Assembly: GCA_964510945.1 (NCBI GenBank)
Contig: CAZEED010000002.1
Location: forward strand, 80,924-144,923
DNA: 64,000 nt
Reading direction: 5' to 3'
Source: an uncultured Candidatus Saccharibacteria bacterium
Lineage (GTDB): Bacteria > Patescibacteriota > Saccharimonadia > Saccharimonadales > JAGQNJ01
In this document: in pieces, positions 7,910 through 27,247 of the stretch
Layout: the number at the start of each line of letters is the position of its first letter
Position numbering within the stretch: the stretch's first letter is position 1
Notes under the pieces: model-generated
What the model saw: the letters and a program-made list of their open reading frames with translations, nothing else
What the model was told of the DNA's origin: nothing
Databases searched by the model: none
Program-made: the position numbers and the translations under genes

Positions 7910-9712
7910 TTATCGATTCTCTTCTTCTGGTGCCCGATAAGTTCTTGCTTCTGAATGCGCGACATCAGACCAAGTTTCAGCCCTGGTGACTCGCCTAACT
8001 CCCCTTGTTCTATCGATAGGATCCGACCAAGATGCTGCGTACCTTGGGTCAGCTGCTGCCCTTGCTGAATTGTATTTCTCATCGTAAGTTACAGTTGCAG
8101 GTAGGCCGGTTGTAGGATCAATTCTACCGGTTGCAGTTGCCATGTAAGCTTCTAGCTCGCCAGGACCACCGCCTGGAGGCCTTCCATGAGCATCTAAAGC
8201 CTCTCTTTGGGCGATAAGAGCATCTCGTGTGGCCCCTGTGGAGTTAGGAATCATTGCGTCTAGTTCTTGACGAAATACAGCAGCTTGGTGCAGAGCATCT
8301 GGGTCTCCAGTAGCCATGCGATCAATAATCTCTTCACCCATTCCTTGAATTGTGGAAGGTTGAGCATTAGCGAGTTGATACAATGATGCTTTTTCGCCAC
8401 CTTCGGTTGCTGTTCCGGCTCCAAGATCGAAACGCCCAGCACCCCTGGCATGATACTGAAATGCTCCAAGCGCTTCTGCAGCTTTACTATCATTACCATC
8501 GGCTAGCCTGCTAGCACCAGCCGCTACTAAGCCATTAGCCCCCGCACCAAGCGAACGGGCTTTATTCTGAGCAAGACCGTTAAACGCGGCTGCTGCGTTG
8601 GTCTTTGTCACACCTACGGCACGTGCAGCTGCAGTAGCTTGTGAGACTCTAGCATCAGCTTGCGCAAGAGCGTCAGCGTGAGATGCCCCCTTGGCTCGTT
8701 GCTGTTCATACCAGTGATTTCTAAGTTCTGCTTGTGCTTGTTTCATTCCTTCGCTTGTACCTCCACTTAAACCGAGTAATGCAGTTGCATCATCATTATT
8801 TAGCATCATAGATTGCAATTCAGGGTTCTTGGCTGCTTCTGTTTCTGCAACCTGCTTCTTAAGTTTAACAGCTTCTCGACCTCGTTTTCCAAGCCCAAAT
8901 CTATTGGTTGCCCCAACGCCTAAACCTGCACCGATTCTGTTAACCCTTCGTCCCAGAGCTGTTCGTTCTTTCATATTGCCGCCCATGAAATTCTGACCGC
9001 GTTCTGCCCATTTTTTCTTTTGGCGGTTTTTGCCCATACCTTGGGCCCAGTTTTGGGCACCGGCACCACGTTGCGCTATTGCGCCACCCATGGCTGCGAA
9101 GGCACTACCAGCAAGCGAAAAGGTTTTTGGGATAAGAAGTAATGGCACAAAAAATCCTGCCAGTACAATAGTAGTCTTTACGATGTCTCCGTTAGGATCG
9201 TGCCCTGCGATAAAGGCAAATATTCTGCCCGCGGCAATCATTGCCATAATCAGCGGGAACATCAGCAGGAGTTTGGTAAAGTTGTCCCACCACATCTTCC
9301 AAAACCGCTCGGTATTGGGTAAGATCCAGGCGACGAGTGCTATTGGCGAGAGAAGTACTAATAGAATCAGTAGGGCTCGCCGCACAGCAAGACTCAAAAA
9401 AGCCACTAATACAGCTATTACCACAAAAGCAGCGATTGCTAGTACTCCACCACCAAAGGCTACACCTACGGTTGCAAATAACAGGGTTGTACCGAGTGTT
9501 GTGGCACTAGAGCTTGATGATCCAGCCAGCAGAGAATCTAGGCCAAAATTCGCCGATCCTCCAAATGCTCCGTACATTAAACCTTCAATACCAAAGGCTA
9601 TCTGGTTAGTGATAAAAATAGCACCGGTTGTAATAAACCACGATAATTGGATCAGAATAACAGCAATAGCTAGTCGTGGTAGAACCTTCTTTACCGTATA
9701 AGCATCAAACAT
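7910..9712 (-). CDS. Polytopic membrane protein, VirB6/TrbL-like candidate, with a long Ala/Gly-rich soluble C-terminal half
   Basis: 600 aa. The first ~230 aa contain about 6 hydrophobic helices. Operon context with VirB4 and PrgI-like genes. No sequence motif is diagnostic by eye. Confidence 0.5.
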   Translation of the reverse strand: MFDAYTVKKVLPRLAIAVILIQLSWFITTGAIFITNQIAFGIEGLMYGAFGGSANFGLDSLLAGSSSSSATTLGTTLLFATVGVAFGGGVLAIAAFVVIAVLVAFLSLAVRRALLILLVLLSPIALVAWILPNTERFWKMWWDNFTKLLLMFPLIMAMIAAGRIFAFIAGHDPNGDIVKTTIVLAGFFVPLLLIPKTFSLAGSAFAAMGGAIAQRGAGAQNWAQGMGKNRQKKKWAERGQNFMGGNMKERTALGRRVNRIGAGLGVGATNRFGLGKRGREAVKLKKQVAETEAAKNPELQSMMLNNDDATALLGLSGGTSEGMKQAQAELRNHWYEQQRAKGASHADALAQADARVSQATAAARAVGVTKTNAAAAFNGLAQNKARSLGAGANGLVAAGASRLADGNDSKAAEALGAFQYHARGAGRFDLGAGTATEGGEKASLYQLANAQPSTIQGMGEEIIDRMATGDPDALHQAAVFRQELDAMIPNSTGATRDALIAQREALDAHGRPPGGGPGELEAYMATATGRIDPTTGLPATVTYDEKYNSARAAADPRYAASWSDPIDRTRGVRRVTRAETWSDVAHSEARTYRAPEEENR

Positions 9713-9898
9713 ACTATTCCTTACTTACTGCTTGTCCTATTATCATAACTAGTCCGATAACCACAAGCAATACACTAGCTATATTCCTAAAGTAAGACCA
9801 AGCCTCCTTCAACCCATCATCATTAATCTCTGCCCTACCCACCTGCAACATATCAGCTATAGCATTAACCATAGAATCTACAGAAGAGTCGACGATAC
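9711..9898. repeat. 188-bp direct repeat, copy 1 (3-prime end of paralog A plus its stop and flank)
   Basis: Aligned by eye with 10555-10742. One mismatch (A at 9885 versus G at 10729). Similarity drops sharply beyond 9898. Confidence 0.9.
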
Positions 9899-10553
9899 TC
9901 AAGACTAAGCAGACTAGCCATGCACCCGGAAAATCAAAACTGTCTTCACACTTCGGCTCACTATCGTCGGTGCTTGCTGGTGGTGCGGTAGCGGATCCTG
10001 GGGCTTCTGGAGCTTCAACCGGATCCGGCACACCATCAGCATCATCATCAGTACGATCAACAAAATCTTCTGCTATTTCAGTATCGCCGATTGTAGGTTC
10101 TGTTTCGCCTACTGATCTGTCGAGTTTGTCTTTGGATACACGAATTCCTGCAGAATTACTGGAAGGCGAATTCAATAGGCTAGCAAATTGCCACTCGCTA
10201 TTTAGCATAAAATCATCAGAAGATAGAATAAATTGAGGGAGGTCATCTACTGTTTCGGCTCGTTGGTTTGGCCTACAATAAATATATAACCACTTTTTGC
10301 CGTTATCTTTTTTTCTCTTCAGCGTATCTACAAGAGGATTGTTTCCCCCAGCATCCTCTATTAAGTCAATATCTGCTTGAGTTGGGGTTCTCGTTACGTA
10401 TGCACAAGGAAAATCTGTCAAGACGTCTTCTAGGCTATCCAACGAGGGCTCTGCAAGCACAATCCTTGGCGAAAATATCAAGATAAACATCGGTGCTAAC
10501 ACTAAAAGTATCATGAGATAGCTTTGAAGTCTTTTTAAAATGATTTTGTTCAA
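9714..10553 (-). CDS. Secreted/membrane-anchored protein, paralog A: variable acidic ectodomain plus a conserved C-terminal two-helix module
   Basis: 279 aa, TTG start with a signal-peptide-like N-terminus (MNKIILKRLQSYLMILLVLAPMFILIFSPRIVLA). The C-terminal ~62 aa are identical to those of the next gene (...IVDSSVDSMVNAIADMLQVGRAEINDDGLKEAWSYFRNIASVLLVVIGLVMIIGQAVSKE). Confidence 0.7.
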   Translation of the reverse strand: MNKIILKRLQSYLMILLVLAPMFILIFSPRIVLAEPSLDSLEDVLTDFPCAYVTRTPTQADIDLIEDAGGNNPLVDTLKRKKDNGKKWLYIYCRPNQRAETVDDLPQFILSSDDFMLNSEWQFASLLNSPSSNSAGIRVSKDKLDRSVGETEPTIGDTEIAEDFVDRTDDDADGVPDPVEAPEAPGSATAPPASTDDSEPKCEDSFDFPGAWLVCLVLSIVDSSVDSMVNAIADMLQVGRAEINDDGLKEAWSYFRNIASVLLVVIGLVMIIGQAVSKE

Positions 10554-10554
10554 G

Positions 10555-10742
10555 ATACTATTCCTTACTTACTGCTTGTCCTATTATCATAACTAGTCCG
10601 ATAACCACAAGCAATACACTAGCTATATTCCTAAAGTAAGACCAAGCCTCCTTCAACCCATCATCATTAATCTCTGCCCTACCCACCTGCAACATATCAG
10701 CTATAGCATTAACCATAGAATCTACAGAGGAGTCGACGATAC
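10555..10742. repeat. 188-bp direct repeat, copy 2 (3-prime end of paralog B)
   Basis: Same as copy 1, offset 844 bp. Confidence 0.9.
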
Positions 10743-11670
10743 CGAGCACAAAACAAACAATAAATCCCCCGGTAAAATTAAATTGTTCATCGCAAGTCTT
10801 TGGGCTTTCCGGCACAGGTTGGCCAAGACCTAAATCTAATCCGTCACCACAGGCATCTACTGAAAAATCAGCTGGCCCCACAGTACGAACCACTCTTTTA
10901 TTACCCGTCATATTAAGATTGCCAGTATCGAGGAAGACTATATTCGTTCTACCACGACAATCTATTCTGGAATTGTAAAGTAACTCGTATGTATATTTGC
11001 CCGGGTCTACTCTTTTCATGTATTCTCTTTCGTTCGAGTTGATTCCAGTAGGAGTAAAAATAATCGGATCTCCACCACCTTCTGGAGTAATAGAAACTCT
11101 AACTAATTCTGCCTCAGAATCTGTTTTGGGGAATGGTGTTTTTTGCAGATTATTTTCTGGATCCAAAAACGAGAGCACAAAAGTTAACCTTACCTTGTTT
11201 TCTATCTCATCAGTTACATCGATGGTTGTTTCTTTATCGCGTCCACATTCATTGGTTAGATCCACATTTTTTGTAATCTCATCACCCCTACTTGTAGTTA
11301 CTGTTAGTGTGAATTTTGCAAATTCGGCAGTGAATATATCGTTTCCGCCTGTTTCACACCAACCCTTAATATCGATATTGGTAACCTCGAAGTGATCTTC
11401 GTGCCTAGATAGTTCATACGTACTTTCAACACCCTCTAGCTCATCTTGTCGGTCAATTCTTAAGGTTGCATCTGGGTCATCTGGTTCCAGGTAGACAATT
11501 AGCGCTGAATCTTGTGGGTCATCGGGATCTGCATGTCCTGCTGATACTTTATGAGTAGAAAATAATGTCACGCTGGCGACAGGCATTATTAGGGTAAACA
11601 TAAAAATGCTAAGAAACACTAAAATCCTAGACTCTATATTTTTAGATGGCTTTGTTTTGAATGACATCAT
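10558..11670 (-). CDS. Secreted/membrane-anchored protein, paralog B: different Cys-containing ectodomain plus the same C-terminal two-helix module
   Basis: 370 aa with an N-terminal signal/anchor (ILVFLSIFMFTLIMPVASVTLF). Shares the motif C-x-[DE]-x-F-[DN]-F-x-G-x-[WF]-[LI]-V-C and the identical C-terminus with paralog A. The N-terminal ~290 aa show no similarity to paralog A. Confidence 0.7.
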   Translation of the reverse strand: MMSFKTKPSKNIESRILVFLSIFMFTLIMPVASVTLFSTHKVSAGHADPDDPQDSALIVYLEPDDPDATLRIDRQDELEGVESTYELSRHEDHFEVTNIDIKGWCETGGNDIFTAEFAKFTLTVTTSRGDEITKNVDLTNECGRDKETTIDVTDEIENKVRLTFVLSFLDPENNLQKTPFPKTDSEAELVRVSITPEGGGDPIIFTPTGINSNEREYMKRVDPGKYTYELLYNSRIDCRGRTNIVFLDTGNLNMTGNKRVVRTVGPADFSVDACGDGLDLGLGQPVPESPKTCDEQFNFTGGFIVCFVLGIVDSSVDSMVNAIADMLQVGRAEINDDGLKEAWSYFRNIASVLLVVIGLVMIIGQAVSKE

Positions 11671-12349: not shown

Positions 12350-13054
12350 ATGATAAGAAGAATCTTTACCTTGTCGTTTCTATATACTTTCAGTGCTATT
12401 TTTATTAGTTCTGGATTACTAATGATGCTTTTCTCTGCCACAGTAATTGCAGAATCTTCAGATGTCTTTCATTTTACGTGCAGATCTCAAGATGGCTCCG
12501 AAGATGATGTTGTTTTAGGCCGAGGAAACCCACCTAAAATAAAATGCGCTACTAGGACTTCGACCCTAGGACGAGCAAATATAGGTCAAGATGACCCCGA
12601 TAACAAATACGATAGTTTTAGAATAACCTGTCAAACCGGAGAGCCAAAACTAAATATACTATCTACATTACCAGAGTGTTCAGACGGATCATCTCCGGTG
12701 GTAGAAGATCTTGACGAAGGTTCGCTAGCCGTTCCTCCTGTAGCGACTACACCTCCTGGCTCCGGGGGGGCTGCCACGGGTCGGTTTGAGTGCACGGGTG
12801 ATGCTTGTGTGACCGACAATCCGATCACAAGATTCTTGATAACCGTTGTTAACTTTTTAAGTGCACTGGTTGGAATAATAGTGATTGCTGTAATTATAAT
12901 AGCCGGGATTCAATACACAACATCAGGGGGGAACCCTCAACAAGCGGCGCAGGCGAAAAAACGAATTATTAATGCCGTCACGGCGCTAGTGGCCTTCTTT
13001 TTCTTGTTTGCGATTTTGCAGTGGTTGATACCAGGGGGTATATTTAAGTCATGA
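12350..13054 (+). CDS. VirB2/TrbC-like T4SS pilin paralog 1, with a ~150-aa extra N-terminal ectodomain
   Basis: The C-terminus LITVVNFLSALVGIIVIAVIIIAGIQYTTSGGNPQQAAQAKKRIINAVTALVAFFFLFAIL matches the two-helix pilin module shared by the next five genes. Cys pair FECTGDAC precedes it. Pro-rich linker VPPVATTPPGSGG. Confidence 0.7.
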   Translation: MIRRIFTLSFLYTFSAIFISSGLLMMLFSATVIAESSDVFHFTCRSQDGSEDDVVLGRGNPPKIKCATRTSTLGRANIGQDDPDNKYDSFRITCQTGEPKLNILSTLPECSDGSSPVVEDLDEGSLAVPPVATTPPGSGGAATGRFECTGDACVTDNPITRFLITVVNFLSALVGIIVIAVIIIAGIQYTTSGGNPQQAAQAKKRIINAVTALVAFFFLFAILQWLIPGGIFKS

Positions 13055-13431
13055 ATCTAATCCCTGCATTGCTATCTAGATTTGCTGCAGCTTGCCCTGA
13101 GCAATCAGTCTTTGGTATCCCGACTTGGTATAAATATTTGCCTGCAGAGACAGTTAACGGTGAATGTAAACTACTCGGTGATTTTGCTCAAAGTAAGTTG
13201 GACTCACTACTAGGTATTGGGCTGGCGATCACTGAGATATTACTTTTTATTGCCGGTTTTTTGGCTATCGTATACGTTGTCTACGGTGGGTTTCGCTACG
13301 TTTTAAGCCAAGGTGAGCCAGAGAATACAAAAATTGCTAAAGACGCTATTTTAAATGCGGTAATTGGGCTGGTTATTGCAGTACTTGCCAGCGCTATTGT
13401 TAGATTTATTGGGAATAGTATATCGACATGA
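13051..13431 (+). CDS. VirB2/TrbC-like T4SS pilin paralog 2
   Basis: 126 aa. Module is LLFIAGFLAIVYVVYGGFRYVLSQGEPENTKIAKDAILNAVIGLVIAVLASAIVRFI. ATGA overlap with the upstream gene. Confidence 0.7.
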   Translation: MNLIPALLSRFAAACPEQSVFGIPTWYKYLPAETVNGECKLLGDFAQSKLDSLLGIGLAITEILLFIAGFLAIVYVVYGGFRYVLSQGEPENTKIAKDAILNAVIGLVIAVLASAIVRFIGNSIST

Positions 13432-13742
13432 TCAACATCCAGTATCTGATGATTAGAGTTGCGCAGTTAATTCCAAATCCGGGCACTAAGTTACCGAATC
13501 AAAATGTGACCGAAGCTAGCCTGCAGACTACGATTGCTAATGTCTTTACGATTGTTTTTGGTGCATTGGGAGCTATCTCGGTGTTAATTATCACGCTAGC
13601 TGGCCTGCAGTACATCATGTCTGGTGGCGATCCAGCCAAGACTGCCAAGGCCAAAGATACCATTATGTACGCTGTAATTGGGTTAGTTGTGGCTGTTTCT
13701 GCGGGGGCGATTGTTAATTTTGTACTTAAGAAGGCGACTTAA
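13428..13742 (+). CDS. VirB2/TrbC-like T4SS pilin paralog 3
   Basis: 104 aa. Module is FGALGAISVLIITLAGLQYIMSGGDPAKTAKAKDTIMYAVIGLVVAVSAGAIVNFV. ATGA overlap with the upstream gene. No Cys pair and no obvious signal peptide. Confidence 0.65.
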   Translation: MINIQYLMIRVAQLIPNPGTKLPNQNVTEASLQTTIANVFTIVFGALGAISVLIITLAGLQYIMSGGDPAKTAKAKDTIMYAVIGLVVAVSAGAIVNFVLKKAT

Positions 13743-13746
13743 GAAT

Positions 13747-14127
13747 ATGCTGAGAAAACTCTCATTACTACTGCTAACAATTTTTAGTTGTTTTTATGTA
13801 GCGTTCCCAGCTGTAGTACTAGCGACTGATCCAATCGAACAAGTTTGCCAGATTAATCCAGATTCGTCGGTTTGTAAATCATCTACAACCGAAAATCCTA
13901 TATTTGGCTCAAAAGGCATAATAACTAGAATCACAAAAGTATTAGGGTTTGTTGTCGGAGTAGCCGCCGTGATCATGATTATTATCAACGGATTTAAGTT
14001 TGTGCTATCGAATGGCAATCCCGAGAATGTAACCAAGGCAAAGAACGGAATAATTTTTGCCATAATTGGGCTTTTGGTTGCCTTGTTTGCAGAGGCTATT
14101 GCAATTTTTGTAATGCAGAGGCTATAG
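13747..14127 (+). CDS. VirB2/TrbC-like T4SS pilin paralog 4
   Basis: The track ORF starts at 13687 and overlaps the previous gene. ATG 13747 gives a signal peptide MLRKLSLLLLTIFSCFYVAFPAVVLA, a Cys pair QVCQINPDSSVC, and the module VGVAAVIMIIINGFKFVLSNGNPENVTKAKNGIIFAIIGLL. Confidence 0.75.
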   Translation: MLRKLSLLLLTIFSCFYVAFPAVVLATDPIEQVCQINPDSSVCKSSTTENPIFGSKGIITRITKVLGFVVGVAAVIMIIINGFKFVLSNGNPENVTKAKNGIIFAIIGLLVALFAEAIAIFVMQRL

Positions 14128-14153
14128 TATTAACAGAAAAAAGGATAACAAAA

Positions 14154-14609
14154 ATGAACAAATCAAAAATCAAAAACATCTTTTTAAGCTTTATGCTCGT
14201 GCTGGGTATGATTACGCCAGTATCTTTTGCTATTCAATCTAATGCTTTTGCTTTGGTAGATGATACTCCAGCCGGTGATGGCATTGACCCAACCGCCGAG
14301 GTATCTTCGGCACAAAGCGATGTATGTAATGGAATCAAGGCCACCGGCGGGACATGTGATGATGCCCCAGGCGCCAAAACTGTCAAAGACATTATTGCAC
14401 TTGCAATCAATATTCTGAGCTTTATTGTCGGAGTAGCCGCCGTGATCATGATTATTATCAACGGATTTAAGTTTGTGACTTCTAGCGGGGAAACAGCGGC
14501 AGTGGCTAGCGCCAAGAACGGAATAATCTTTGCAGTTATTGGTTTGGTGGTGGTTGCTTTGGCTCAAGTAATTGTCAGATTCGTAGTTAATAGAGCGACT
14601 GGTCTATAG
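14154..14609 (+). CDS. VirB2/TrbC-like T4SS pilin paralog 5
   Basis: Signal peptide, Cys pair DVCNGIKATGGTC, and module VGVAAVIMIIINGFKFVTSSGETAAVASAKNGIIFAVIGLVV. Confidence 0.75.
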   Translation: MNKSKIKNIFLSFMLVLGMITPVSFAIQSNAFALVDDTPAGDGIDPTAEVSSAQSDVCNGIKATGGTCDDAPGAKTVKDIIALAINILSFIVGVAAVIMIIINGFKFVTSSGETAAVASAKNGIIFAVIGLVVVALAQVIVRFVVNRATGL

Positions 14610-14681
14610 ATACACTTGTATTGCGTATCAACAATGCTTATGATAAATTTAAACTAACAACAAACATAAGGAAACACACTA

Positions 14682-15101
14682 ATGAATAAACTTATCAAGC
14701 GAATAACTTTAACTACAATAGCTTTATTTACAATTTTAGCACCGGCAGGTCTTGCCGTCTCCCCAGTTTTTGCAGTTTCGGACGCTAATATCGATGATAA
14801 CCTATGTAAGGGTGCAAATCTTGATGTTACCGATGGTACCTGTTCTACTGATCCCGTAGAAGCACAACAGACTGTAAACGATATTATCGCAACCGTTATT
14901 AATATATTCTCGATCGTTGTTGGTGTAACAGCGGTGATTATGATAATTGTTGGAGGCTTTCAGTATATTACCTCTGGTGGTGATAGTGGTAAGGTGACGA
15001 CAGCCAAGAACACCATATTATTTGCGATAGTCGGTCTAGTTATAGTCGCGCTTGCTCAGGTAATAGTTAACTTTGTCCTATCAAAAGCCATAGACGTTTA
15101 A
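14682..15101 (+). CDS. VirB2/TrbC-like T4SS pilin paralog 6
   Basis: Signal peptide, Cys pair NLCKGANLDVTDGTC, and module VGVTAVIMIIVGGFQYITSGGDSGKVTTAKNTILFAIVGLVI. Confidence 0.75.
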   Translation: MNKLIKRITLTTIALFTILAPAGLAVSPVFAVSDANIDDNLCKGANLDVTDGTCSTDPVEAQQTVNDIIATVINIFSIVVGVTAVIMIIVGGFQYITSGGDSGKVTTAKNTILFAIVGLVIVALAQVIVNFVLSKAIDV

Positions 15102-15340: not shown

Positions 15341-15835
15341 TTACATTACCTGGATTTTTTTAACGGTGTCTTGTTTAACTTTCGTGAACGAGATTGTAAG
15401 CACGCCGTCTTTGAGTACTGCTTCTACGCCTTCCTCTTTGACCTGTACGGGCAATGCAATGCTTCTAGAGAATTCACCCCAGTAACATTCTTGAACGAAG
15501 TAATTAACTACATCATCTTCGTTACCAGCCGATAGTGTGCCTCTGATGCTAAGCGTGTTATCTGATATGTTTACGTCTAGATCGCTTTTGTTGACCCCTG
15601 CTGTTCGAGCCTTTACTACTAACTTTTCTTTAGTCTCGTATACGTCAACTGCTAATTGACCAGGTACTACTGATTCTTCTTCGTCCCATTCTTCGCCGGC
15701 AGCTTGTTGTGCGCCCGTGGCTGATTCTGGACTTTCGCTTTTTGTGGCTTCTACCACATCATCGTCGCTTAAAAAAGCGGCAGTTAACTCGTCTTCTATT
15801 AATAAATCCTCATCGTTTCGGCTTTTACGAGCCAT
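15341..15835 (-). CDS. Hsp20/alpha-crystallin family small heat-shock protein
   Basis: LAVDVYETKEKLVVKARTAGVNKSDLDVNISDNTLSIRG ... GVLTISFTK matches the alpha-crystallin domain pattern. Confidence 0.9.
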   Translation of the reverse strand: MARKSRNDEDLLIEDELTAAFLSDDDVVEATKSESPESATGAQQAAGEEWDEEESVVPGQLAVDVYETKEKLVVKARTAGVNKSDLDVNISDNTLSIRGTLSAGNEDDVVNYFVQECYWGEFSRSIALPVQVKEEGVEAVLKDGVLTISFTKVKQDTVKKIQVM

Positions 15836-15964
15836 GGTTGTTACCCTCCACTAAATGTAATTGTTATGTTGGCACCTTTTTATTTCTTATGCAAGTATAG
15901 CGTATTATGTAAGGAGTTAGCAATGGTTTGAACACAAAAATTACAACGCAATTAACACAACACT

Positions 15965-16661: not shown

Positions 16662-16749
16662 GGAGAGGTGCAGGAGTGGTTGAACTGGCCGCTCTCGAAA
16701 AGCGGTAAGGCGTAAGCCTTCGTGGGTTCGAATCCCACCCTCTCCGCCA
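16662..16749 (+). tRNA. tRNA-Ser (anticodon CGA), CCA encoded
   Basis: Acceptor GGAGAGG/CCTCTCC, anticodon arm CCGCT-CTCGAAA-AGCGG, long variable arm, T-arm GTGGG-TTCGAAT-CCCAC, 3-prime GCCA. Confidence 0.9.
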
Positions 16750-16792
16750 ATAAAATATCCCCACCTGACTAGAGTGGGGTTATTTTATTGAT

Positions 16793-16924
16793 AGAGTTCA
16801 AAGCCAACTGCTTGGCTTTGAAGGGATTCGAACAGTCGGAACGTAGTTTGCCGGTACTCGGCAAACCGTGAGACGAGCTCATGAGCAAATTGCAAAGCAA
16901 TTTGACTTGGGAGTCGTATATCCC
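16793..16924. ncRNA. Candidate structured RNA / tRNA-linked repeat, copy S-A (132 nt)
   Basis: Identical to 25902-26033 except for 5 substitutions confined to one hairpin. Helices: TTCAAAGCCAA/TTGGCTTTGAA, closing GGGAT/ATCCC, GTTTGCCG/CGGCAAAC, CAAATTGC/GCAATTTG. Single-stranded motifs AGTCGGAA (16834-16841) and TGAGACG (16869-16875). Strand undetermined. Confidence 0.55.
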
Positions 16925-16940
16925 ACCCTCTCCGCCAATA
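16920..16940 (+). repeat. 21-nt perfect duplicate of the tRNA-Ser(CGA) 3-prime end plus 3 flanking nt
   Basis: ATCCCACCCTCTCCGCCAATA occurs at 16732-16752 (within and just past the tRNA) and again at 16920-16940, a 188-bp period. Confidence 0.9.
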
Positions 16941-17685: not shown

Positions 17686-17741
17686 GTACCCGTAGCCTAA
17701 GCGTGATAGAGCGCATCCCTCAGGGTGGATGAGGCCAGAGG
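17686..17741 (+). pseudogene. 5-prime portion of a tRNA-Arg-like gene (acceptor through the T-stem 5-prime strand), with an 8-nt anticodon loop
   Basis: GTACCCGTAGCCTAAGCGTGATAGAGCGCATCC-CTCAGGGT-GGATGAGGCCAGAGG is collinear with positions 1-53 of the intact tRNA-Arg at 17890. It stops exactly where the T-loop should start. Confidence 0.7.
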
Positions 17742-17853
17742 CGAGAACAGCCCGATGGCTGTTCGCAGAGTCGGAAGCCTGGCGCAAATTATTGCCCAAG
17801 CTGAGACGGGGTCGCATAATTTGTTCAACAAACAAATATCTGCGACAGAATCC
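17742..17853. ncRNA. Candidate structured RNA, divergent member (R-up) of the S-element family
   Basis: Same order of elements as S-A and S-B. Hairpin GAACAGCC/GGCTGTTC, then AGTCGGAA (17769-17776), an imperfect hairpin GCCTGGCGCAA/TTGCCCAAGC, TGAGACG (17802-17808), and helix GTCGCA/TGCGAC enclosing hairpin ATTTGTT/AACAAAT. Spacing between the two motifs is 33 nt versus 35 nt in S. Confidence 0.5.
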
Positions 17854-17889
17854 TGATTCGAACCTTTACATGATAAATTTTGCAAATAT

Positions 17890-17966
17890 GTACCCGTAGC
17901 TCAGCTGGATAGAGCGCATCCTTGCGGAGGATGAGGCCAGAGGTTCGAATCCTCTCGGGTACACCA
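17890..17966 (+). tRNA. tRNA-Arg (anticodon GCG), CCA encoded
   Basis: Acceptor GTACCCG/CGGGTAC, D-arm GCTC-AGCTGGATA-GAGC, anticodon arm CATCC-TTGCGGA-GGATG, T-arm AGAGG-TTCGAAT-CCTCT, 3-prime ACCA. Confidence 0.9.
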
Positions 17967-18110
17967 TCCTCCGTCGTTTGCCTTTCTGGCAAACTATGAA
18001 GGTTTTTTTATTTGATTGAGGATTCGAGCCGATAGGCGAAAACAGTTGGGAACTGTTTGAGTTATAAATATTTCTAGCGAAATGCTTTAGCTCTTGAGCG
18101 GATAACATAA

Positions 18111-18133
18111 TTCGAATCTTCTCGGCTACACCA
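18111..18133 (+). pseudogene. 3-prime portion of a tRNA-Arg-like gene (T-loop, T-stem 3-prime strand, acceptor 3-prime strand, CCA)
   Basis: TTCGAAT-CTTCT-CGGCTAC-A-CCA. It pairs with the 5-prime fragment at 17686-17741: the T-stem gives 5/5 pairs including one G-U, and the acceptor gives 6/7 pairs. Confidence 0.65.
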
Positions 18134-18202: not shown

Positions 18203-18886
18203 GTGAATAAACTAAATAAATATGGTTTTGGACTAGTCGAGATCATCTTGTTGATTACAATTATCGTTGCCTTAGGATTAATTGGCTATTATGTTTATTC
18301 TAACGCCCACATGAGTGATGAGGGCAATAAACCAATCAATGATGCTGATGCCTCTAGTCCCCAGACTACCGAATACGCAAATAAAGAATTTGGCTTTAAG
18401 TTTAGCTATCCAACACCTAGTGAGCGCGATGCTCCGGTAGTAAGTGATACAACTCCTAATGTTGGGCCGGTTTTGGGTAAATCCTACAGCATAACTCTTG
18501 AACCAAAATTTGTTGGCGGTTTTGTTACGAATAATTTTGCAATGGCACCAGATAAAGTTGACGAAATGCCACTAGGCTTTAGCCTCTATGATGGTTGTAG
18601 GCCCGATGATACCGTCCAAAAACAGGCTATTTTGTATAAATCTAAAGATGTTTGTGTAGTTGTGAATGCATCAGAAGAATTAGCGCCAGGCTCAGATGTA
18701 AAATCACTTTACGCTACCATGGTTGTTCAAAAAAAGTTTACAAAAAATGATCAGATTGCCGGCCTAGAGTTCGCTCGGTCACCCGTTGCGATAAAAAGTC
18801 TAGACAAAGCAAAACTAAAATTAACTTACGGCGAGCAGGTCAACAATGACACAACCGTCTTTGCAAAATCAATCCACGAATTGTAG
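18203..18886 (+). CDS. Protein with a prepilin-type (type IV pilin-like) N-terminal cleavage/methylation motif
   Basis: GTG start. MNKLNKYG/FGLVEIILLITIIVALGLIGYYVY fits the G-F-x-L-x-E class III signal followed by a hydrophobic helix. Confidence 0.6.
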   Translation: MNKLNKYGFGLVEIILLITIIVALGLIGYYVYSNAHMSDEGNKPINDADASSPQTTEYANKEFGFKFSYPTPSERDAPVVSDTTPNVGPVLGKSYSITLEPKFVGGFVTNNFAMAPDKVDEMPLGFSLYDGCRPDDTVQKQAILYKSKDVCVVVNASEELAPGSDVKSLYATMVVQKKFTKNDQIAGLEFARSPVAIKSLDKAKLKLTYGEQVNNDTTVFAKSIHEL

Positions 18887-25087: not shown

Positions 25088-25647
25088 AATCTAATCTTGT
25101 GCATTAATTTGTCGACTTTGTCTTGTTGACGCTCTTCTTGTGGCAACATTGCGCCGAGTGCATCGACAATCTTTTTTTCATCATCTGGTGCAAAATATAC
25201 TGTTATTGCTGGCATAAATCTTTTTAGTGGTAATAATGCTATAGAGCTAATAGCTCCCTCTTCGACAATGGCGAAGGATTTGAACATCGATACGGGGTAT
25301 AGTTTTGCACCTATATGGATGCCTTGAGAGTCCAGTTTATAGCTTAGTGTTTCTGGCTTTCGGCCGGCAAAGTAGCCTATGCCAACGGCTAATACGCTCA
25401 GCACGACAATAGATATATAGTCACGTGTTACAAAGAATGTTACTCCAATAATACCGATACTTGCTAACCCAAATTGTACAAACCACATGTTCCCTTTTTC
25501 ATGCTCGACATATTCTGATGCGGTCCACTCAACGTTTTTTATTGAGTTTGTTGTGGGGGCAGGACTTTGTTGCCCATTAGTAGGGTTAGCAGTTTGATCG
25601 TTTGTAAATTTCCAGCCCGCAGACTGCCCCGCATTATCATTATCCAT
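25084..25647 (-). CDS. Hypothetical membrane protein (two TM helices plus a soluble C-domain)
   Basis: The track ORF starts at GTG 25653. ATG at 25647 is preferred because a TAGAAT box lies 6 nt upstream. Confidence 0.55.
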   Translation of the reverse strand: MDNDNAGQSAGWKFTNDQTANPTNGQQSPAPTTNSIKNVEWTASEYVEHEKGNMWFVQFGLASIGIIGVTFFVTRDYISIVVLSVLAVGIGYFAGRKPETLSYKLDSQGIHIGAKLYPVSMFKSFAIVEEGAISSIALLPLKRFMPAITVYFAPDDEKKIVDALGAMLPQEERQQDKVDKLMHKIRF

Positions 25648-25759: not shown

Positions 25760-25852
25760 GGAGAGGTACCCAAGTGGCTGAAGGGGACGGTTTGCTAAAT
25801 CGTTAGTGGGGCGCAAGTTCCAGCGAGGGTTCGAATCCCTCCCTCTCCGCCA
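25760..25852 (+). tRNA. tRNA-Ser (anticodon GCU), CCA encoded
   Basis: Acceptor GGAGAGG/CCTCTCC, anticodon arm ACGGT-TTGCTAA-ATCGT, long variable arm, T-arm GAGGG-TTCGAAT-CCCTC. Confidence 0.9.
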
Positions 25853-25901: not shown

Positions 25902-26033
25902 AGAGTTCAAAGCCAACTGCTTGGCTTTGAAGGGATTCGAACAGTCGGAACGTAGTTTGCCGGTACTCGGCAAACCGTGAGACGAGCTCATGAGCAAATT
26001 ATGGAGTAATTTGACTTGGGAGTCGTATATCCC
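25902..26033. ncRNA. Candidate structured RNA / tRNA-linked repeat, copy S-B (132 nt)
   Basis: See copy S-A. The only differences (GCAAAGC versus ATGGAGT within CAAATT...AATTTG) keep the hairpin paired. Confidence 0.55.
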
Positions 26034-26058
26034 GACACTATAAATAGGCTTAGGCCTC

Positions 26059-26168: not shown

Positions 26169-26197
26169 TCCTTGGTAGCGAAGCCATCTAGGCTTAG

Positions 26198-27247
26198 TTA
26201 TGAAGGATTTTTTTGATCAAGATTTAATGGTGTTTTGTTTTCTACTGGTATTTTCGGCTTTAGTCTATTAATGAAGATTGTGAAGATAATAACGCCTATT
26301 ACGCCGATTATTAACAGAGTAATTCCAGAATTTTGCAAAATCCGTGCCCAGTCTGAGAAGATGGTTTCTGCTAGTTTTTTGAGCGACTCTATCGGTGCTT
26401 GGCTAGAGTTGTCACTGGTGGTTGGCATTAGATTGCTGATTGAAAATCTTAACATTATGGCTGAAATAGTCAGAAAGACCCCTGTAATTAGTAGAGTCAC
26501 ACTCCCCTTTCTGGCTCCATGAAGTTTCGTTTTGCTCAGCATTACAACCCCAACCAAACTGATAATCAGCAATATAAATGCGTAGGGAAAGATCTTTTCA
26601 ACAAGTTGAAAAAGTTTAGGTATAGTCTCTGGCGTGTTCTCGTTAATTGGCGCCGAAAAGCCCAGATCCTCGGCTTCTTTATTAGTTAGGCTCCCATCGC
26701 TGGTTGTGCTGTCAGAGAACACATCGTTATTGAGGTTAGCTTGGTCAATTGCTTCATCAATTAATTGATTAACGTTAGTACCGCTTGGGATGCAGTCAAT
26801 ATTACTGATATCTTCAAGATTAGGGATCTGCCCGTAGGCACAAGTTGGGAGTGTTTTGGCTCGCACTTTCAAAGCCTTAGAATACGTACTAACGAAAGAA
26901 TCTTTAATCTTGTCGATATTAATAACTATTTTCGGTGTTTTTGTCTCTCCGTTAAGCCAAGCGTAGCTGGCATCAATAACAGGATTGGCAATCTTTTGAA
27001 TATTTTCTGGTGAGGCTGCGGTCGCGATGGATTTGGCTAATAATTTGTTACTGGGATCATCTTTGGTGGCCTGTTTGACAATAATTTTGCTTGTCTCTAT
27101 ATATAGACCTGATTCAGTAATAGAATTTGCTAGATATTCCTTGTCGCCAATCGTGTGATGAAAGCTATATACAAACACTAATGTGTAAATCGCCGGTGCT
27201 AAAAGCCCAACAGACAAAATTAAACCGATTTTTTTCAGGATATTCAC
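26198..27247 (-). CDS. Hypothetical membrane protein (N-terminal anchor, ~200-aa ectodomain, C-terminal multi-TM region)
   Basis: 349-aa ORF with a GTG start. No motif. Confidence 0.6.
   Translation of the reverse strand: MNILKKIGLILSVGLLAPAIYTLVFVYSFHHTIGDKEYLANSITESGLYIETSKIIVKQATKDDPSNKLLAKSIATAASPENIQKIANPVIDASYAWLNGETKTPKIVINIDKIKDSFVSTYSKALKVRAKTLPTCAYGQIPNLEDISNIDCIPSGTNVNQLIDEAIDQANLNNDVFSDSTTSDGSLTNKEAEDLGFSAPINENTPETIPKLFQLVEKIFPYAFILLIISLVGVVMLSKTKLHGARKGSVTLLITGVFLTISAIMLRFSISNLMPTTSDNSSQAPIESLKKLAETIFSDWARILQNSGITLLIIGVIGVIIFTIFINRLKPKIPVENKTPLNLDQKNPS

Follow-up and report, generated by a model that had tools for sequence, protein, structure and literature searches.

The RtT RNA of Escherichia coli has been attributed to processing of the tyrT transcript (Bösl and Kersten 1991, as relayed in PMC2965389), and covariation support has been reported for part of the RtT structure held in Rfam (PMC8250186). 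The tyrT locus of E. coli K-12 carries four RtT units (133–137 bits), each of the form GGGGAAGGAUGAGAAG...GAGUAAUCCUUCCCCCACCACCA; the 19-nt tail of these units, AATCCTTCCCCCACCACCA, is the 3' end of tRNA-Tyr, and the annotated rttR gene opens 7 nt past tyrV, with its end exactly at the tail's CCA. The tyrT-distal repeats of E. coli, 178 bp in length, were sequenced in the 1970s. A second system that joins a tRNA to its trailer is the proteobacterial sX4 of Xanthomonas, described as an orphan sRNA, for which a Northern band of 280–300 nt was obtained vs. 156 nt expected from sequencing (PMC3300014); the size of this band would fit co-transcription of a tRNA and the element behind it. The literature retrieved contained no link between sX4 and RtT. 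Repeated tRNA 3' ends are also a feature of genomic islands that integrate into tRNA genes, whose integrase-less derivatives include CIMEs; classical tRNA att sites reportedly begin in the T-loop (Williams 2002).

Here we describe a window of 64,000 nt from an uncultured Saccharibacterium, in which a tRNA-Ser(CGA) gene is followed by a second copy of its own 3' end. Judging from sequence comparison, we consider it probable that the segment ending in this copy is a divergent RtT-like, tRNA-linked element that Rfam does not detect, with the duplication of the tRNA end as the hallmark of the class.

The repeated tRNA-Ser(CGA) end and the elements behind it

The 21-mer ATCCCACCCTCTCCGCCAATA is present on the + strand in two exact copies, with 0 mismatches (Table 1), vs. 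a chance expectation of 0 matches in 100 dinucleotide-preserving shuffles; its sole other near matches in the window are the 3' ends of two other tRNA-Ser genes. A sequence-only reading of this DNA had pointed to a perfect 21-nt duplication of the tRNA-Ser(CGA) end around 167 bp, and the exact match at both sites, with none in the shuffles, confirms it. Given the placement of tRNA-Ser(CGA), a gene adjoined by ComF, copy 1 therefore spans the end of the T-loop through CCA and into the trailer, comprising the last two T-loop bases (AT), the T-stem 3' strand, the acceptor 3' strand, G73, CCA and 3 trailer bases. This make-up, including the start of the repeat inside the T-loop, is as that reading had given it and agrees with the tRNA boundaries of both ARAGORN and Rfam. 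The CCA of the copy-2 tail ends at position 16937.

Table 1. Features of the tRNA-linked elements in the window
Feature	Position	Strand	Basis
tRNA-Ser(CGA), CCA encoded	16662–16749	+	ARAGORN; Rfam tRNA, 54.7 bits
Repeat copy 1: tRNA 3' end and 3 trailer bases	16732–16752	+	exact match
Trailer hairpin CCCCACC..GTGGGG (16759–16779), then T-run	16759–16789	+	terminator scan; sequence
P0, perfect 11-bp hairpin directly 5' of the S core	16797–16822	+	inverted repeat; fold
S element core, copy S-A: 5' motif GGGATTCGAAC, P1, P2, P3 with hairpin, long P4 arm	16820–16927	+	direct repeat 16793–16924; covariation
Repeat copy 2 (tail): ATCCC (P1 3' strand), acceptor 3' strand, G, CCA, then ATA	16920–16940	+	exact match; homology to the 19-nt E. 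coli RtT tail
Q: pseudo 5' part of tRNA-Arg (17686–17741) fused to S-related body (17742–17864)	17686–17864	+	sequence; orthologues
R, behind tRNA-Arg(GCG) (17890–17966), body unlike S, 5' motif GAGGATTCGAGC	18018–18133	+	direct repeat; sequence
S-B, S copy behind tRNA-Ser(GCT) (25760–25852)	25929–26036	+	direct repeat; covariance model, 94.3 bits

The 167 nt that separate the copies (16753–16919) hold a terminator-like hairpin, the perfect hairpin P0 and the body of the element that we call S. The trailer hairpin was terminator-like on both strands in the terminator scan, and the position of P0 is occupied by a different hairpin in one of the S copies of the related locus L001 (L001 19890–19911). 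S itself measures 132 nt, starts 44 nt after tRNA-Ser(CGA) and lies on the same strand; its body opens with GGGATTCGAAC (16823–16833) and closes with ...GTCGTAT right before the second ATCCC. These 132 nt (16793–16924) recur at 25902–26033 with 96% identity. The S-B copy stops at ATCCC and is without the acceptor/CCA tail; this absence, together with mismatches in several other tails, indicates that the acceptor/CCA part is not strictly required. In scans with a covariance model of the S class, S-A scored 97 bits, having been in the training set of the model. The sequence-only reading had proposed to look for further S copies adjoining 3' fragments of tRNA genes, and with S-B behind tRNA-Ser(GCT), as well as a third S behind tRNA-Ser(TGA) in L001, the arrangement is no one-off duplication. 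Matches to RGGATTCGARC in the window were confined to the antisense of tRNA T-arms and to element starts, besides one match with 1 mismatch at 25275.

Elements also accompany tRNA-Arg(GCG). The tail of R, TTCGAATCTTCTCGGCTACACCA, repeats the tRNA-Arg 3' end, from which it differs by 2 mismatches in the window. In L001 the orthologue has a perfect 23-nt tail and forms a tandem with a second R unit; both units end in an unaltered tRNA-Arg 3' end and have their own terminator hairpins. In Q, the tRNA-Arg part runs through the T-stem 5' strand and is decayed, while the body has the motif CGAGAAC, ends in GAATCCT.. and shares AGTCGGAAG and GAGACGGGGTCG with S. Q carries its own promoter, CCTCTGTTATAT, and lies directly upstream of a second promoter, which the real tRNA-Arg follows; orthologues are present in L001 and L008 and absent from L004, where a different tRNA-Arg allele directly follows the same promoter. 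We had considered that S and Q might be circularly permuted relative to each other, an idea that was dropped as the S-class model aligns Q collinearly, though weakly (17.4–20.7 bits). Q is better read as a tRNA-Arg copy with an S-related body in its T-loop. A 5'-side duplication resembling Q was seen in L003, where the first 17 nt of tRNA-Ser(GGA) (10663–10752, minus strand) are repeated ~950–1100 nt upstream, once exactly and once with 3 mismatches.

Two other repeat arrays were seen in the window. Positions 9708–9938 and 10552–10782 form a 231-nt direct repeat of 92% identity at the ends of two adjacent minus-strand ORFs in a type IV secretion region, and at 12953–15043 three or four small paralogous genes in tandem, whose relatives are T4SS pilin/TrbC-like, have repeated segments of 41–57 nt in common.

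Structure and conservation of the S body

To describe the S class, 15 sequences were aligned, six of them from this lineage and nine from metagenomes, and analysed with RNAalifold, which returned 29 pairs. Paired cells amounted to 92.8% vs. 73.0% in column shuffles (0/500 reached the observed value) and 35–47% with the partners slid; compensatory changes, on both sides of a pair, occurred in 20 of the 29 pairs. The architecture is a three-way junction with P1 (GGGAU/AUCCC), P2 (C.GUC/GAC.G), P3 with its hairpin, and a long P4 arm. The idea that the downstream repeat provides the closing-helix strand of S proved sound: the ATCCC formed by the first five bases of repeat copy 2 complements GGGAT at 16823–16827, and the helix, P1, is found in 15 of 15 aligned S-class sequences. 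P1 is invariant throughout the class, so that covariation does not prove P1 itself. The S core of the window shares 94% identity with that of L001, vs. 52.5% identity at the third codon positions of ComF for the same pair. As judged by these alignments, the S body is a conserved RNA structure of the + strand, and it is under strong purifying selection.

These figures bear directly on another explanation of the repeat, a neutral local duplication in which the 3' end of the tRNA was copied a single time, by slippage or unequal crossing-over, leaving a functionless sequence in between. A short direct repeat around a short segment is in keeping with such an event, as are the decayed tails (2 mismatches in the R of the window, 1 mismatch in L004). 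We nevertheless regard this explanation as highly improbable, given the 94% conservation of S against nearly saturated synonymous sites, the compensatory changes in 20 pairs, and the fact that the element occurs several times per genome and has analogues at more than 100 loci of other organisms.

We give equally little credence to the view that the minus strand is the functional one, as an antisense RNA, an anti-tRNA or a primer-binding-site-like sequence, or that the locus is a split, permuted or intron-bearing tRNA. The minus strand does fold well (z -4.2), and through the 21-mer it would be perfectly complementary to the 3' end of the tRNA over 18 nt, but the G-U pairs of the + strand become A-C pairs on the minus strand, which argues that the + strand, i.e. 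the strand of the tRNA, is the functional side. All elements are moreover oriented as their tRNA, and no reverse transcriptase domain was seen among the 20 ORFs scanned. A split or permuted tRNA is brought to mind by Q, which looks as though a body had taken the place of the T-loop in a tRNA-Arg gene; against this, S is without the 5' half of a tRNA, and neither ARAGORN nor Rfam recognizes a tRNA or tmRNA within the element.

Other categories were also tried. ARAGORN and the Rfam tRNA and tmRNA models made no call over 16790–16940, setting aside a tRNA or tmRNA gene, a permuted one included. A MITE was rejected as well: the only complementarity of the ends is GGGAT/ATCCC, and the flanking repeat is a tRNA end and confined to the 3' side of tRNA genes. 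By motif, strand or context reasoning from the sequences, we also rejected a hammerhead, a T-box, SRP RNA, a two-piece tmRNA, an IS200/IS605 omega-RNA, an integron attC and an LTR-type primer-binding site. Rfam scans of the window and its close relatives, at the gathering threshold and at permissive E-values, returned tRNAs only, with no RtT, ribozyme, SRP, 6S or tmRNA, and ORF translations of S matched nothing among 5.8 billion proteins.

Gain and loss of units in related genomes

ComF, which adjoins the tRNA, assigns the window to Saccharibacteria. A ComF search of genome contigs yielded 3 loci, and orthologous loci were then gathered through ComF homologues; differences in units were read from the alignment of these loci and from the raw sequences. 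At tRNA-Ser(CGA), the window and L001 (ComF 77% identical to that of the window) have the same order, i.e. the tRNA, a trailer with S, and a tail. In L008 (ComF 70% identical), the trailer is followed by a different body, T, and then by the tail, while L004, with a ComF 92% identical to that of the window, shows the tRNA, a trailer with the T body, a tail, the window's trailer with S, and a second tail; the L004 tails have 1 mismatch. Whole units, comprising trailer, body and tRNA-end copy, are thus present in some relatives and absent from others, with edges exactly at the repeated tRNA end. The presence of T in L004 vs. its absence from the window may reflect an insertion in L004 or a deletion in the lineage of the window.

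Further relatives extend this picture. In L005–L007, T is inverted along with its tRNA. L013 has a shorter T-like unit whose tail matches the acceptor sequence of L013 itself, and just 38 nt lie there between tRNA-Ser(GCT) and tRNA-Ser(TGA), a gap that represents an empty site for S-B. L002, from a distant Saccharibacterium, carries yet another body type with a perfect tail, and the third S copy of L001, behind tRNA-Ser(TGA), comes with the trailer that follows tRNA-Ser(GCT) in the window. The differences among the window, L001, L002, L004–L008 and L013 indicate that units are gained, lost and moved at the repeated tRNA end. The comparison of related tRNA-Ser loci for empty sites, which the sequence-only reading had called for, yields both an empty site for S-B, in L013, and an arrangement that differs among the window, L001, L004 and L008.

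Several smaller observations belong with these loci. The trailer and terminator of tRNA-Ser(TGA) in the window (26169–26215; TCCTTGGTAGCGAAGCC..ATGAAGGATTTTT) are the module that stands before the T body in L004 (895–940), and the same module also precedes the T body behind tRNA-Ser(CGA) in L008; the tRNA-Arg trailer shares its form. Trailers seem to travel together with units. In L001, a hairpin-forming insert of ~60 nt (10963–11021) is found between the ATCCC of S and a diverged tRNA-end tail (CCACCCTCTCTGCCA). L008 has a body of another type, U, behind tRNA-Ser(GCT) (15745–15924), with a tail derived from a Ser(TGA/CGA)-type 3' end; an intact tRNA-Ser(TGA) is missing downstream, and the U element appears to have replaced the 5' part of the tRNA-Ser(TGA) gene at this site. 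L008 also carries a bAvd-like gene, for an accessory protein of diversity-generating retroelements, at 18316–18654, ~8 kb from tRNA-Ser(CGA), which is absent from the window. The Logan contigs L005, L006, L007, L009, L010 and L012 end shortly after ComF or within the tRNA/element region, and the repeated units probably break short-read assemblies.

Such turnover raises the matter of an integrative element. The earlier reading had entertained a miniature or decayed form. As we spell it out, a site-specific (tyrosine or serine) recombinase encoded elsewhere would insert, at the T-loop region, a circle of ~190 bp bearing a copy of the tRNA 3' end, restoring the tRNA and displacing its old 3' end. 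Parts of the layout fit such an element. The repeat starts in the T-loop, which resembles classical tRNA att sites; units stack on the side proximal to the tRNA, as in L004, where the T tail is followed by exactly the trailer of the window, S and the old tail; and the module of trailer and S stands behind tRNA-Ser(GCT) in the window and behind tRNA-Ser(TGA) in L001. The likeness to island att sites and CIMEs extends to a direct repeat of the tRNA 3' end from the T-loop on, an intact tRNA on one side with a 3' fragment on the other, and accumulation in tandem. The differences from these islands are that the insert of the window is ~170–190 bp, without integrase or cargo, and that it forms a conserved structured RNA which includes the fragment.

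A direct repeat of the tRNA end and an empty site are hence both found; a recombinase inside or adjacent to the unit is not, as Pfam detected no integrase/recombinase or reverse transcriptase domain in the 20 ORFs (263–763 aa) scanned among the 47 window ORFs that reach 180 aa. A recombinase gene would not fit into the 167-nt insert, an exact-pattern scan of viral contigs for the S and T bodies gave 0 matches, and the tail flank in R units is without a convincing core-type inverted repeat. The body, moreover, is strongly selected and covaries as RNA, and the layout recurs at no fewer than 120 metagenome loci and at E. coli tyrT, where RtT is an annotated RNA gene described as a product of transcript processing. 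We therefore consider an integrative element unlikely. What stands of that suggestion is the presence and absence of units bounded by the tRNA end; the integrative origin itself does not fit the conserved body, the breadth of the layout or the 20 ORFs. The duplicated tRNA end is a part of the element itself, and it is among the traits that define a known class of RNA elements linked to tRNA genes.

For the RtT-like element that we favor, the repeated tRNA ends would offer a likely substrate for recombination: units could cross over unequally, be deleted between the direct repeats or, possibly, be excised and re-inserted at any gene sharing the 3' end. An excised circle, if formed, would show the junction ...GAGTCGTAT|ATCCCACCCTCTCCGCCAATAAAATATCC. 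Recombination at the repeated ends would explain the stacking seen in L004 and L001, the loss of units and their spread among tRNA-Ser genes sharing the 3' end.

Breadth in metagenomes and relation to RtT and sX4

An RtT-like unit is composed of a trailer, a structured RNA body of ~110–130 nt and the last ~18–21 nt of the tRNA, from the T-loop to CCA. With a generic pattern of GGATNNGAAC, 80–110 nt and ATCCCNCCCTCTCCGCC, we scanned metagenome contigs, where at least 120 loci share the tRNA-Ser-linked layout. From the matches listed, 115 elements were kept after 8 true tRNAs had been removed; among these, 80 of 115 have a same-strand tRNA-Ser upstream, of any anticodon, at a distance of 18–105 nt in all but one. 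The match to the tRNA 3' end is mostly 17–21 nt long, with 17 nt of that sequence demanded by the pattern itself, and a repeat of this length has its start in the T-loop. Identity past CCA in some of the elements points to tandem units, and GC content ranges from 46% to 73% over the set. P1 is often extended by its 5' strand into the acceptor part (GGAGGGAU/AUCCCUCC, GGGUGGGAU/AUCCCACCC), an extension that covaries weakly with the tail (6.06 vs. 5.60 in shuffles; 0/500). By BLAST, the S of the window groups with L056, L027 and L070 (77% over 119 nt, E 9e-19). A 27-nt pattern specific to S had 0 matches in the metagenome contigs, a collection that is evidently without the sample holding L004. 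In L095 and L100, the 5' strand pairs with the entire T-stem and acceptor 3' strand (18 bp), forming a complete acceptor-T minihelix, with a G-CCA overhang, that tRNA enzymes might accept as a substrate.

In a permissive scan with Rfam RF00391, three metagenome elements scored 42.5, 34.5 and 30.3 bits vs. the threshold of 45, and E. coli RtT clusters by BLAST with a large group of metagenome elements (77% over 69 nt, E 1e-10). The RtT model found no match in the window, either at the gathering threshold (45 bits) or at E up to 10, nor in L001, L004, L008 and L013 at E up to 1; S, R, Q, T and U all go undetected by it. BLAST gave no connection of the S body to the E. coli-type body, and the S-class covariance model does not see E. 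coli RtT, its scores being weak (13–29 bits) for Q, T and two other classes. In view of these negative results with Rfam, BLAST and the S-class model, our claim is that of a common architecture, motif and context, and not of homology of the bodies.

With respect to expression, the annotation of rttR in E. coli and the Northern result for sX4 indicate, for these relatives, that a stable RNA is released from the primary tRNA transcript. We surmise that S would be made by read-through from tRNA-Ser(CGA), with its 5' end set free by the cleavage that matures the 3' end of the tRNA, and its 3' end arising from tRNA-type processing at its own CCA tail (16937); the product would be ~188 nt long, and its closing helix and tail would imitate the 3' side of the T-stem and acceptor of the cognate tRNA. 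The terminator-like hairpin and T-run between the tRNA and S count against this scheme, with read-through across 16759–16789 being an assumption.

One may go further and regard RtT-like elements as one large, ununified superfamily of imitations of the top half of tRNA, with a structured domain in place of the T-loop, standing behind many tRNAs across bacteria, Saccharibacteria among them, hopping as self-contained ~190-bp cassettes from one tRNA gene to another with the same 3' end by recombination at the tRNA end, possibly via circles, and acting as RNA in a tRNA-specific role such as 3'-end processing, quality control or the sensing of charging in the stringent response. We put this forward as a speculative, rather doubtful extension. 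RtT-like elements are a known but poorly understood class, and what is new here is the breadth and modularity of that class: the architecture of RtT also goes with tRNA-Ser and tRNA-Arg, and it occurs in the ultra-small genome of a Saccharibacterium as well as in at least 120 metagenome loci, which argues that the class is functional and widespread and no E. coli curiosity. Covarying bodies and turnover at the level of units provide comparative material for defining an invariant core of 5' motif, P1 and tail. For annotation, tRNA-end repeats of this kind are not to be taken for integration scars.

Turning to the systems described at the outset, the Rfam model of sX4 (RF02223) is like the window in that it spans a tRNA-Ser and the trailer behind it, reaching as far as a GGGGG(A)UG motif, which forms pairs with the 3' strand of the tRNA. 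The metagenome locus L058 scores 100.8 bits with this model and has an RtT-like element behind its tRNA-Ser, whereas the tRNA-Ser region of the window scores 19 bits.

Compared with RtT, S-A differs in its partner tRNA (Ser, with Arg for other elements of the window, vs. Tyr in E. coli) and in a body whose sequence is unrelated to that of E. coli at the level of BLAST and Rfam, the RtT model giving no hit at its gathering threshold of 45 bits. P1 is 5 bp in the window, a terminator-like hairpin and the extra P0 hairpin lie between the tRNA and S, and a single unit follows tRNA-Ser(CGA) vs. 3.14 identical repeats at tyrT, the host being a Saccharibacterium. The features in common are a position 3' of a tRNA, a tRNA-end tail with CCA, and a 5' motif with a closing helix. 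S-A and the E. coli units both lie directly 3' of a tRNA gene on the same strand. Their tails are the last 19 nt of the tRNA, CCA included, in E. coli and 18 nt plus 3 trailer bases in the window, with the same start in the T-loop. Both open with the motif GGAU-NN-GAA(C/G), as GGAUGAGAAG in E. coli and GGGAUUCGAAC in the window, and both have a multi-hairpin junction body and can be stacked in tandem. In both, too, the 5' strand pairs with the tRNA-derived tail, the Rfam RtT consensus having the same P1 between its 5' strand and the T-stem/acceptor 3' strand of the tail.
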